A program made the translations under genes and the position numbers. A stretch of DNA of 63,972 nucleotides, counting the filler, from Stramenopiles sp. TOSAG23-2 (Eukaryota), in NCBI GenBank assembly GCA_900128395.1. It is 11 parts of 11 records of this genome, joined end to end, with 100 filler letters (N's around TTAATTAATTAA, not from the genome) between each part and the next. Parts side by side here need not be neighbours in the genome. Positions count along the whole stretch, not along the records: positions 24,843 to 33,005 come from LT650232.1; 10 more parts are not named here. One strand, given 5' to 3'. The notes below the pieces were generated by a model. The model was not told the DNA's origin. It saw nothing but the letters and a program-made list of their open reading frames with translations, and made no database searches. Shown one piece after another: positions 27,063-28,484 of the stretch. Numbering within the stretch: the stretch's first letter is position 1; each line of letters starts with the position of its first letter.

Positions 27063-28484
27063 ATGACGAAGTTGACCAATTTTTCCATTTTTGTTTATGT
27101 TATATTTTTCGTGGTAGCATTAAATTGTGGCAATGCTAAAAAAACGTGGGGATTGTTAAGAAATAATAAAGAAGAAGACAAGAAGCCGAAAGTAACTCAT
27201 CGTGGTAAAACATTTGAACCAACTTGCCATGTCGATTATAAAGAAAATTCATATGGTGGTATATGTACTACAGCTGATATGTGCGATTTAACAGTGATAG
27301 ATAAAGACGGACACGCACGTTCCGCTGGAGCAACATTTTTAAAACATGTTGCTGGAATTAACGGTGAAAAGTGTTCTCCTGGTGAAAGCTGTTGTGCTGA
27401 TGTTCAATGCTTAAATGGACATGGTCATTGTATGGATACTAAATTTAGAACGTGCAAGATGAAAACAAAATCAGGGCAATGTCCTGGAGGGAAAACTGTT
27501 ACGTGTTGCCCAAATTCAGCTAAATCACTACAAAAATATGACGACGAACGTTTTGCGGATAACAAAAAATGTTTAGGAGGTGAAGGTATTTGTAGATTAA
27601 GAAGTACAGGGAATTGTGAACATAGTTGGGTTGGTAACCAATGTGGAAAAGGCAAGGAAGTTTGCTGTCCAAAAAGTGCTGGTGCTGAAGCAAAATGGAA
27701 AAAGATGAAGTTACAAAAAATGTGCAATTACGTTGGACCAGCTGCAGCACATTTAGATATGGATATTACTATTTTAATGGCATTTAATAAAGTTGAAAGT
27801 GGTGGAACAGCTAGCGCAATTCGTTTTGAATGCCATAAATTTCTTCAGTACAGCAAGGAAAAAGTGCCCTGTACTATTAAACCAGGAAAAACGTTTTCGA
27901 TGGAAAAATCTGAAAATGGCCCGGGTGCATTTAAGCGAGCATTTACAAAGGATAAAATTGCCGCTATTAAAGCGACTAGTTTTGGTTATTTCCAAGTAAT
28001 GGGATTTTATTTATTACAGATTAATAATAATGCAGATGAAGCCCTTAAGTTATTTAAAGCAGATCCAGAAAAAATTAGTAGAAAACTTTTGATTATGTGG
28101 TTTACTGATCCTACATGGGGTAAACATGCTGCTAAAGCTGCAAGAAAAATCAAGTCTGTTAATAGCGAATTAAAGCAATGGGAAATGTTAGTAAGAAAAT
28201 TTAATGGCAATGGGCAAATTCCACGATACGTCCCGCTACTTAAAAAAGCATATACATTTTATAAAGGTAAATGCCCTAATAGATTTACATACAAAAAAGA
28301 TGTTATTAAGCTTGATGGGCTTGAAACTGCATCGTGGCCAGGTAGAGAAGGTAGATCTGAATATCCAACCCTTTTGCATGAGTTATTTAAAAAAAAGAAT
28401 TTTGACGATTGGTTTAGCCATGGTAGAGGTAAAATTCCGTTTGGAGCCAAGTTAGGGGATCACGACAGAAATATGATGGCTTAA
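27063..28484 (+). CDS. Secreted protein: three defensin-like six-Cys repeats plus an N-acetylmuramidase (DUF3380/PF11860-like) domain
   Basis: Signal-peptide-like N-terminus; repeats ending CSPGESCC, CPGGKTVTCC and CGKGKEVCC; KVESGG, IRFECHKF, AIKATSFGYFQVMGF, W-x4-RKFNG, Y-x2-LLKKAY. Confidence 0.85.
   Translation: MTKLTNFSIFVYVIFFVVALNCGNAKKTWGLLRNNKEEDKKPKVTHRGKTFEPTCHVDYKENSYGGICTTADMCDLTVIDKDGHARSAGATFLKHVAGINGEKCSPGESCCADVQCLNGHGHCMDTKFRTCKMKTKSGQCPGGKTVTCCPNSAKSLQKYDDERFADNKKCLGGEGICRLRSTGNCEHSWVGNQCGKGKEVCCPKSAGAEAKWKKMKLQKMCNYVGPAAAHLDMDITILMAFNKVESGGTASAIRFECHKFLQYSKEKVPCTIKPGKTFSMEKSENGPGAFKRAFTKDKIAAIKATSFGYFQVMGFYLLQINNNADEALKLFKADPEKISRKLLIMWFTDPTWGKHAAKAARKIKSVNSELKQWEMLVRKFNGNGQIPRYVPLLKKAYTFYKGKCPNRFTYKKDVIKLDGLETASWPGREGRSEYPTLLHELFKKKNFDDWFSHGRGKIPFGAKLGDHDRNMMA

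Follow-up and report, generated by a model that had tools for sequence, protein, structure and literature searches.

How does an uncultured marine eukaryote come to encode an enzyme of a family (PF11860, DUF3380) whose literature under those two names, judged by titles, concerns phages and bacteria, and what might it use that enzyme for? The question is raised by one gene in a 63,972-nucleotide stretch of DNA from Stramenopiles sp. TOSAG23-2 (assembly GCA_900128395.1). The whole stretch is called the window here, and the gene, at 27063..28484 on the plus strand, lies in the part of it taken from LT650232.1. Its 473-residue product joins a signal-peptide-like N-terminus to three six-cysteine modules, of a type (CysRRep) discussed below, and to a predicted N-acetylmuramidase domain. 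Judged from sequence and predicted structure, it is a horizontally acquired and probably active muramidase. The reading we favour, at a probability of roughly 0.7, is of a secretory-pathway muramidase that would act on bacterial peptidoglycan in food vacuoles or outside the cell, with the modules as an envelope-directed accessory. A preliminary description of the window had given the same open reading frame (ORF), with three cysteine-rich repeats ending in CC and a set of muramidase motifs; all three repeats are there by their Cys positions, and every quoted motif is present in the 473-residue product. The parts of the gene are as follows, with the phage endolysins Pae87 and AP3gp15 as references for the active site.

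27063..28484, plus strand: coding sequence of the muramidase, three CysRRep-type modules and PF11860; 473 codons and a TAA stop, intronless, from the list of ORFs
27063..27137, plus strand: signal-peptide-like N-terminus (residues 1-25), with a hydrophobic core and a cleavage-like NCGNA/KK
27138..27224, plus strand: basic linker (residues 26-54), net charge +5, poorly conserved, predicted local distance difference test (pLDDT) score below 50
27225..27395, plus strand: Cys module 1 (residues 55-111), net charge -3, six Cys with a 29-residue insert, low model confidence
27408..27509, plus strand: Cys module 2 (residues 116-149), net charge +5, C-x6-C-x7-C-x8-C-x7-CC
27570..27668, plus strand: Cys module 3 (residues 170-202), net charge +1, C-x6-C-x7-C-x8-C-x6-CC
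27726..28277, plus strand: predicted N-acetylmuramidase domain (residues 222-405; Pfam match 236-400), by PF11860, PHROG, profile search of the PDB and Foldseek
27795..27797, plus strand: codon of E245, proposed general acid (Pae87 Glu29, AP3gp15 Glu101), by profile alignment to 7q4s
27828..27830, plus strand: codon of E256, proposed second catalytic Glu (Pae87 Glu46), with H258 after it and Y389 as the fourth cleft residue
28278..28481, plus strand: C-terminal tail (residues 406-473, 68 residues), poorly conserved and predicted to be disordered

The catalytic domain scores 37.8 bits for PF11860 (E = 3e-9) where Pfam requires 22.3, and the match takes in positions 3-174 of the 175-position profile and protein residues 236-400; the family named in the preliminary description was thus found above the cut-off in the hidden Markov model (HMM) search. 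PHROG families 2860 and 1224 ('endolysin') were matched as well. A profile of the 7-member family, compared with solved structures, found the phage enzymes Pae87 (7q4s, E 2.4e-9), LysT84 (7rum, E 9.1e-6) and AP3gp15 (5nm7, E 0.0058); TPR-like matches to the same profile (4y6w and 4y6c) were taken as spurious, no stretch of them passing by itself. In the ESM Atlas, the best score for the whole protein was 0.86, which serves as a lead only, and the matches were SLT- or muramidase-type viral clusters; the N-terminal part had no usable match there.

The predicted fold, lysozyme-like as in the solved members, agrees with this assignment. In the full-length model, pLDDT is 88-97 over residues 205-410, and all seven chains that Foldseek returned at E<=1e-3 come from 7q4t, 7q4s, 5nm7 and 7rum (probability 1.00), the next match having an E of 0.88. 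In Pae87, Glu29 and Glu46 are catalytic, as judged from E29A and E46A, and His48 and Tyr174 line the cleft (PMC8972805); in AP3gp15, E101A loses 99.4 % of activity (PMC5674055). The general-acid Glu, Glu101 in AP3gp15 and Glu29 in Pae87, stands where the central helix ends. The Pae87 cleft residues map to E245, E256, H258 and Y389 through the 7q4s profile alignment. All four are invariant in the alignment of the seven family sequences, and in a 19-sequence alignment to which phage-like relatives had been added, E245, E256 and Y389 are invariant and H258 nearly so. E245 aligns to the Glu of the VES motif in 7q4s, which bears out the earlier choice of that residue as the putative catalytic one. 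We read the domain as a PF11860 N-acetylmuramidase, predicted to be intact and probably active.

The phage DUF3380 endolysins Pae87 (7q4s/7q4t), AP3gp15 (5nm7) and LysT84 (7rum) share with the window protein the Pfam family, a like predicted fold (template modelling scores of 0.48-0.69, normalised to the target) and the Glu/Glu/His/Tyr cleft residues, but identity in the structural alignments is just 19-21 %. Gp110 of Salmonella phage 10 is grouped with these endolysins as cited in PMC5674055. Unlike the phage enzymes, which carry PG_binding_1 or no module, the window protein has a signal-peptide-like start and Cys modules, two extra conserved Cys pairs and a disordered tail. By the strict standard for a phage endolysin, a place in a lysis cassette, it is not one, as the gene sits among eukaryotic genes.

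The N-terminus begins with MTK, after which come a hydrophobic core at residues 7-20 (Kyte-Doolittle mean as high as 3.15 over residues 9-19) and NCGNA/KK. Residues 3-31 form a helix in the full-length predicted model, and every orthologue with a complete N-terminus has a hydrophobic start. The signal peptide of the preliminary description can be kept as a signal-peptide-like N-terminus on the strength of the hydrophobic core and the model helix. The mature protein has 22 cysteines, an isoelectric point (pI) of 9.4 and a net charge of +32, most of it supplied by the muramidase domain. Of the modules, which had been called cationic, module 2 alone clearly is (+5), but modules 1 (-3) and 3 (+1) are not. 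Module 1 is spaced C-x12-C-x5-C-x29-C-x5-CC. In the 7-sequence alignment, 15 of the 18 module cysteines are invariant, C55 among them, and C104 and C131 vary in P0028 and/or P0029. The muramidase domain has C221, C404, C257 and C270, two Cys pairs' worth and likewise invariant across the family. The tail has no conservation in that alignment and pLDDT values of 29-39 from residue 420 on.

What, then, are the modules? Pfam recognised no defensin in residues 50-215 at E<=5, the sole match being Toxin_12 at E 4.4, and a word-based homologue search with residues 112-206 returned their own cluster only. One protein from the exhaustive search, P0099, aligned over the modules alone and has a GHL10 fragment; its repeat region, used as query, found 33 proteins. 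We built a repeat HMM from 14 units, namely module 2 and module 3 of each of the seven members, using the family alone to avoid circularity. It matched 30 of the 33 proteins at a full-sequence E<1e-4, with 1-7 copies each, and missed P0227 (E 0.46), P0236 (E 0.59) and P0240 (no match); among 660 shuffled controls the best E was 1.9. The partners in these 30 proteins are Peptidase_C39_2 (9), VanY (3), glycoside hydrolase family 19 (GH19; 2), and Peptidase_M15_3, DUF2272 and an Rv2525c-like glycosidase (1 each); one more has a weak NlpC/P60 match, one a sub-threshold plant cysteine-rich-domain match over the repeats, and 11 have none. One repeat protein is named as coming from the rotifer Adineta steineri, and three repeat-protein clusters come from what we take to be a marine eukaryote transcript catalogue. 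Among the 150 PF11860 representatives listed, six have Cys modules, and all six are family members, fragments or the repeat-only P0099.

A further secreted family came to light in the same set, with 2-4 Cys modules followed by Peptidase_C39_2 (P0215, P0217, P0220, P0224, P0229, P0231, P0235, P0237 and others). It makes up 9 of the 30 proteins scanned, and the clusters P0235 and P0237 have 26 and 34 members.

Proteins of this kind are a published class. In rusticalin-like proteins (Daugavet et al. 2019, PMC6339383), a phage-A500-like peptidase is combined with a signal peptide and two Cys-rich repeats. A later survey (Daugavet et al. 2020, PMC7379824) found 382 repeat proteins, 374 of them eukaryotic, with nine cell-wall hydrolase domains in 63 of 124 annotated ones; in its repeat logo, Gly is conserved at 26 and 30 and Pro at 29 and 31. 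A 2026 preprint (10.64898/2026.06.07.730663) reports 1246 matches, 859 with non-eukaryotic hits, and 43 Pfam families; 89 % of the viral hits are Caudoviricetes, and five CysRRep proteins come from one stramenopile. The hosts reported in the Daugavet papers are otherwise mainly fungi and metazoa. Chitinase class I is there the one partner N-terminal to the repeats, and P0213 and P0216 have their chitinase-type partner in the same place. The window modules have the marks of CysRRep, namely tandem units of ~30-40 amino acids with six Cys ending in CC and a G-x-C-P-G, a likeness established by description only. By profile and published description together, we assign them to the CysRRep/rusticalin type, a recurring eukaryotic module.

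In both the window protein and CysRRep/rusticalin, a secreted eukaryotic protein has tandem six-Cys repeats, usually N-terminal, and then a phage- or bacterial-type wall hydrolase, and the repeat profile ties the window modules to partners named for CysRRep (Peptidase M15 and N-terminal chitinase class I). The two differ in the catalytic partner, which is PF11860 here whereas the CysRRep main texts name others, and in the host, an uncultured marine protist rather than mainly fungi and metazoa; the window protein also has three modules, the first with a 29-residue insert, against the two repeats of rusticalin. The terms muramidase (in this sense), DUF3380 and PF11860 are absent from the main texts of the Daugavet papers, the search having covered those main texts and neither an image Table 1 (43 families) nor the supplements. 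The module that the preliminary description presented as a feature of one domesticated gene is real but already published, and recurs on acquired wall hydrolases rather than being a one-off invention. The CysRRep-hydrolase class is known; the PF11860 partner and the host lineage are possibly new. As the general phenomenon has been published, the advance is incremental.

The catalytic domain was likely acquired once. A scan of viral contigs with the domain alignment gave 63 loci (best 36 % identity, residues 6-184, E 1e-30), and one of bacterial and archaeal species representatives gave 80 (best 30 %, E 1e-17). In a FastTree phylogeny of 227 domain rows, of which 7 were eukaryotic, 56 from viral contigs, 71 from genomes, 13 from metagenomes and 80 unlabelled, the eukaryotic rows all lie on one side of a branch with support 99. 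The clade of 101 rows that encloses them (support 100) also holds 78 unlabelled, 13 viral and 3 bacterial rows. An IQ-TREE quick search (LG+C20+F+G4) used 81 of the 227 rows and left out 146; it took in all 50 rows of the neighbourhood, the labelled members of the 101-row clade with 8 of its unlabelled ones picked at random, and 14 random outgroup rows. The eukaryotes were again monophyletic, with a Shimodaira-Hasegawa-like approximate likelihood ratio test (SH-aLRT) value of 99, and P0030, P0086 and P0097 formed the sister trio (support 88). A clade with support 99 surrounds the eukaryotes with 44 unlabelled, 13 viral-contig and 3 bacterial rows. The trees are rooted by outgroup choice alone.

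The horizontal acquisition proposed in the preliminary description is consistent with these trees, which nest one eukaryotic clade in phage and bacterial diversity (FastTree 99, SH-aLRT 99). Broad vertical inheritance in eukaryotes, named there as one of the observations that would speak against it, is not what the trees showed; on them, vertical descent is confined to a small clade of marine eukaryotes. There was probably a single acquisition from a phage-borne lineage, and the source was probably a virion-associated lysin.

The nearest relatives are in keeping with such a source. P0030 comes, by its source name, from a marine fraction of <0.22 um; P0196, the full-length mate in its cluster, has ~200 extra N-terminal residues, and the N-termini of P0086 and P0097 are signal-anchor-like. 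The cysteines of RFEC... and ...PC are common to P0030, P0086, P0097 and the eukaryotes. On the closest labelled viral contig, L030, the domain lies in a 411-aa ORF (7338-8573), after which come ORFs of 592 and 1316 aa and a baseplate wedge gene, so that its setting is a baseplate block and no lysis cassette. P0196 was itself looked for in viral contigs, with six pattern matches and none confirmed. Multi-domain PF11860 lysins of marine phages (P0196, P0033, P0035, the L030 ORF 7338-8573 and P0037) are 36-42 % identical to the eukaryotic domain and among its nearest relatives, and P0196 has the RFEC...PC cysteines. Their ~200-aa N-terminal region has no Pfam or PHROG name, they belong to a tail/baseplate gene block, and we read them as virion-associated; unlike the window protein, they are without Cys modules. 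The earlier statement that the usual peptidoglycan-binding domain had been replaced needs qualifying, as the closest relatives have no PG_binding_1 and carry a ~200-aa or signal-anchor-like N-terminus instead.

Some relatives are of interest in their own right. In the phage-like P0037 (845 aa) and P0167 (700 aa), a PF11860 muramidase occurs together with a peptidase of the M15/VanY type, and P0037 has a GDSL esterase domain as well, stacking three hydrolase domains. On a contig titled as a Nanoarchaeota metagenome-assembled genome (L088, ORF 2344-4080), a PF11860-like domain lies in a 579-aa ORF (107 bits against the domain HMM); this may be a peptidoglycan hydrolase of an archaeon, or the contig may be a mis-binned phage.

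Among eukaryotes, a close search found the protein's own cluster (99 %, 43 members) and four clusters of like architecture at 51-55 % identity. The exhaustive search gave 207 matches at E<=1e-3, only 4 of them at E<=1e-30; scores drop from 313 to 104 bits, and below the drop only residues ~225-400 align. Five metagenome loci (L002-L006) hold muramidase orthologues at 42-55 % identity, and same-architecture orthologues across lineages are 41-59 % identical. They adjoin eukaryotic genes in at least five other lineages. Of 20 ORFs at the orthologue loci, 9 had families; the neighbours in L002-L006 encode, among others, a dynein heavy chain, a ZIP transporter, a COMM domain, the ribosomal protein L15e and a DNA polymerase of family A. 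Given the dynein heavy chain at a relative's locus, the host lineage is probably flagellated. Eleven full-length population variants differ by 0-6 substitutions, none at a Cys or active-site residue, and comparison with L001 gives 5 synonymous and 5 non-synonymous changes (ratio of non-synonymous to synonymous polymorphism, pN/pS, 0.25).

The window itself is plainly eukaryotic. The gene starts ~27 kb into it, and 9 of the 20 other large ORFs have Pfam families, all usual in eukaryotes, including RFC, ERGIC/ERV, PUB+UBX, tyrosine phosphatase, ankyrin, CRAL-TRIO and TPR. Neither Rfam nor a tRNA scan gave a match in the window. The two neighbours are:

28786..32262, minus strand: RTEL1-type helicase, convergent neighbour, with DEAD_2, Helicase_C_2 and ARCH_RTEL1 domains
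25450..26454, minus strand: 334-aa ORF, divergent upstream neighbour of no known family, with RNA contigs within it

The helicase lies 301 bases downstream of the muramidase ORF, on the contig that the preliminary description had it share with RTEL1. Beyond the first 8 kb the GC content of the window is ~0.28-0.35, and third-position GC (GC3) is 0.241 in the muramidase and 0.157-0.238 in nine neighbouring genes, so that the AT-rich codons noted earlier are indeed host-like. As the large neighbouring genes are single ORFs too, the absence of introns is a trait of the genome and no sign of foreignness.

The gene stretch was found in 20 of the 24 runs listed, from 12 studies, mostly marine metagenomes, and six of them RNA. 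Contigs of four runs were aligned to window 24843-33005. An oligo-dT RNA contig (X15) covers 27065-28500 with 4 differences, and a contig from a poly-A metatranscriptome of a second study (X18) covers 27147-28513 with 2; neither has a gap. As both are collinear with the coding sequence, the gene is intronless, as first described. A DNA contig from an independent metagenome (X4) spans 27022-28545. X3 gave almost no cover inside the gene, with ~55 % of the run read. An identical protein is present in a eukaryote protein collection. Given its neighbours, the poly-A RNA and the host-like codons, the muramidase is a genuine eukaryotic gene. On read continuity to RTEL1, suggested earlier as a check, no chimeric junction was seen, and no independent contig in the four runs bridges the two genes either.

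The contigs break in a (TA)n tract and in AT-rich spacers. One such place is the divergent spacer, 608 bases long, upstream of the muramidase, which contains a 19-base poly-G (26891-26909) and a (TA)n run (27030-27048). Short joints that skip the muramidase occur in X3 (27048 to 28537) and X4 (27049 to 28543 and 27051 to 28541). With sides of 20-22 letters in TA-rich sequence, they are probably artefacts of low complexity, and we do not take them for a polymorphism in the presence of the gene.

How might such a protein work? The catalytic domain would have passed once, from a phage or bacterial lineage, into the forerunner of what is now a small clade of uncultured marine eukaryotes, and would have been joined to three copies of the CysRRep-type six-cysteine module. 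The product would be secreted or endomembrane-targeted and would cleave the bond between N-acetylmuramic acid and N-acetylglucosamine (MurNAc-GlcNAc) of bacterial peptidoglycan, with E245 supplying the general acid and E256 the second carboxylate. The disulfide-rich modules may stand in for a phage cell-wall-binding domain, may stabilise the enzyme in an oxidising, protease-rich compartment and may hold it on the bacterial envelope. The use would be digestion of engulfed bacteria or killing outside the cell. The module accompanies wall hydrolases of at least eight unrelated folds and may stand before or after the catalytic domain, from which we infer a substrate-directed role rather than that of a fold-specific inhibitor.

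Several points weigh against this account. The Pfam match scores modestly, the sequence by itself matched no solved structure in the PDB at E<=1, and tblastn of the domain against 50,697 phage records gave none at E<=1e-5; given these three results, the window protein is, by its sequence profile, a divergent PF11860 member. Most of the near relatives are unlabelled metagenome proteins, which were picked as best matches to the query, and their closeness is partly by construction. Only one of 16 window proteins, the muramidase, matched L001-L006 when synteny was sought. The assembled RNA contigs give neither levels nor ends, nor rigorous proof of transcription, and no independent contig in the four runs joined the gene to RTEL1 or to the upstream gene. 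As for the modules, we infer their binding role from recurrent partners alone, and the CysRRep authors call the function of the repeat unclear (10.64898/2026.06.07.730663).

A bolder version of the secretory-pathway reading is tentative, and we would sooner doubt it than adopt it. The modules would be a portable eukaryotic envelope-targeting domain, grafted repeatedly onto captured wall hydrolases, and here a phage virion lysin so equipped would attack the intact Gram-negative prey of a presumed grazer. If true, engineered peptide-endolysin fusions would have an equivalent in nature, and CAZy-based surveys of the digestive enzymes of grazers would leave a class of marine predator lysozymes uncounted.

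The modules could instead be the main weapon, defensin-like permeabilisers of the membrane or outer membrane that let the muramidase reach the peptidoglycan of intact Gram-negative bacteria from outside, a design with engineered counterparts in peptide-endolysin fusions; among the alternatives this one survives best, and we consider it unlikely. Beta-defensins connect their cysteines C1-C5, C2-C4 and C3-C6. In a structural search with the N-terminal model (mean pLDDT 75), 2 of 48,161 chains reached Z>=2, both of them antimicrobial peptides of the beta-defensin fold and both with the very weak score of Z 2.1: pelovaterin (2jr3), with 35 residues aligned at rmsd 2.9, and oyster big-defensin (6qbk), with 44 residues at rmsd 3.6. 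Each lies on module 3, over protein residues 161-208. Re-alignment of Foldseek's 579 best chains to the same model left none at Z>=2, and Foldseek itself had no match at E<=1e-3. Below significance, DLP-2 appeared in the search of the PDB with the family profile (E 0.79), and tick carboxypeptidase inhibitor (TCI, 1zlh; E 0.58) and avian beta-defensin 11 (AvBD11) ranked 2 and 16 in Foldseek. Daugavet et al. saw HHpred similarity of the rusticalin repeats to beta-defensins and TCI and proposed perforation (PMC6339383), and Pae87 has a membrane-active region (PMC8972805). The charge of module 2 and the pI of the mature protein would suit a permeabiliser, but module 1 is acidic, module 3 is near neutral, and Pfam has no defensin even at the relaxed threshold. 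Of the earlier term 'defensin-like', the two Z 2.1 matches are what stands, against no defensin above threshold by Pfam, Foldseek or re-alignment.

A regulatory or inhibitory pro-region, like the double-headed TCI, that keeps the hydrolase inactive until processed is improbable. This alternative was raised for rusticalin (Daugavet et al. 2019, PMC6339383), and the basic linkers between modules and enzyme could be processing sites. The TCI match at rank 2 is non-significant and falls below Z 2 on re-alignment, TCI targets metallocarboxypeptidases and not glycosidases, and the module is found beside at least eight unrelated catalytic folds, on either side. Marginally less credible again is a protein that no longer cuts peptidoglycan and serves in pattern recognition or signalling, as proposed for the truncated rusticalin, which is without part of its active site (PMC6339383); here the four cleft residues and the two domain Cys pairs are invariant at 41-59 % identity, and the domain is modelled at pLDDT 88-97. 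That a phage or bacterial gene was misjoined to eukaryotic DNA by assembly or contamination is hardly believable, the missing bridge to RTEL1 and the joints in X3 and X4 that skip the gene being outweighed by the shortness of those joints in (TA)n and AT-rich sequence, the host-like GC3, the eukaryote-type module and signal-peptide-like N-terminus, poly-A-library RNA contigs that match the gene limits, orthologues among eukaryotic genes at five further loci and the identical protein in a eukaryote collection.

The secretory-pathway muramidase that we favour has parallels in concept. The GH25 lysozymes (Metcalf et al. 2014, PMC4241558) and the NlpC/P60 enzymes of Trichomonas (PMC6299479) are bacterial or phage wall hydrolases co-opted by eukaryotes living with or on bacteria; these belong to other enzyme families, and the portions of the two papers drawn on here mention no fusion to Cys modules. 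Lysozymes are among the most expressed glycosidases of marine heterotrophic flagellates (PMC8237690), and the portion of that survey drawn on here names GH22, GH23, GH24 and GH19 and leaves the PF11860 family unmentioned. Small marine eukaryotes, bacterivores included, control the numbers of ocean bacteria, and what is known of the enzymes with which they digest or fight bacteria comes mostly from CAZy-type annotation. The window protein may add a further phage-derived muramidase class, conserved in several uncultured lineages and present in poly-A metatranscriptomes. It would also extend the pattern of CysRRep with an acquired hydrolase beyond fungi and animals, and to PF11860, and as a compact, intronless, single-ORF example it is suited to the study of Cys-module function.

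Other features of the window were seen in passing. Blocks of 44 N, 12 bases and 44 N stand at 8200-8299, 16479-16578, 24743-24842, 33006-33105, 41259-41358, 49500-49599, 57741-57840 and elsewhere, spaced ~8.26 kb apart, with more N blocks near 59.3-62.5 kb and a run of 152 N at 60288-60439; the regular blocks look like masking or scaffolding, not biology. The ORF at 12797-14218 (plus strand) is also exactly 473 aa long, and its kinship to the muramidase was rejected (best E 2.5); it has no Pfam family. A 2605-aa ORF at 372-8189 (minus strand) has a GC of 0.46 and a GC3 of 0.38, against a GC of 0.28-0.35 elsewhere; its product matches no Pfam family and is acidic and of low complexity, rich in E, D, A and T with runs of Arg, Asp and Glu. 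The ORF at 9020-10576 (plus strand) joins a protein-tyrosine-phosphatase domain (residues 54-311) to a C-terminal Methyltransf_25 domain (residues 392-469).

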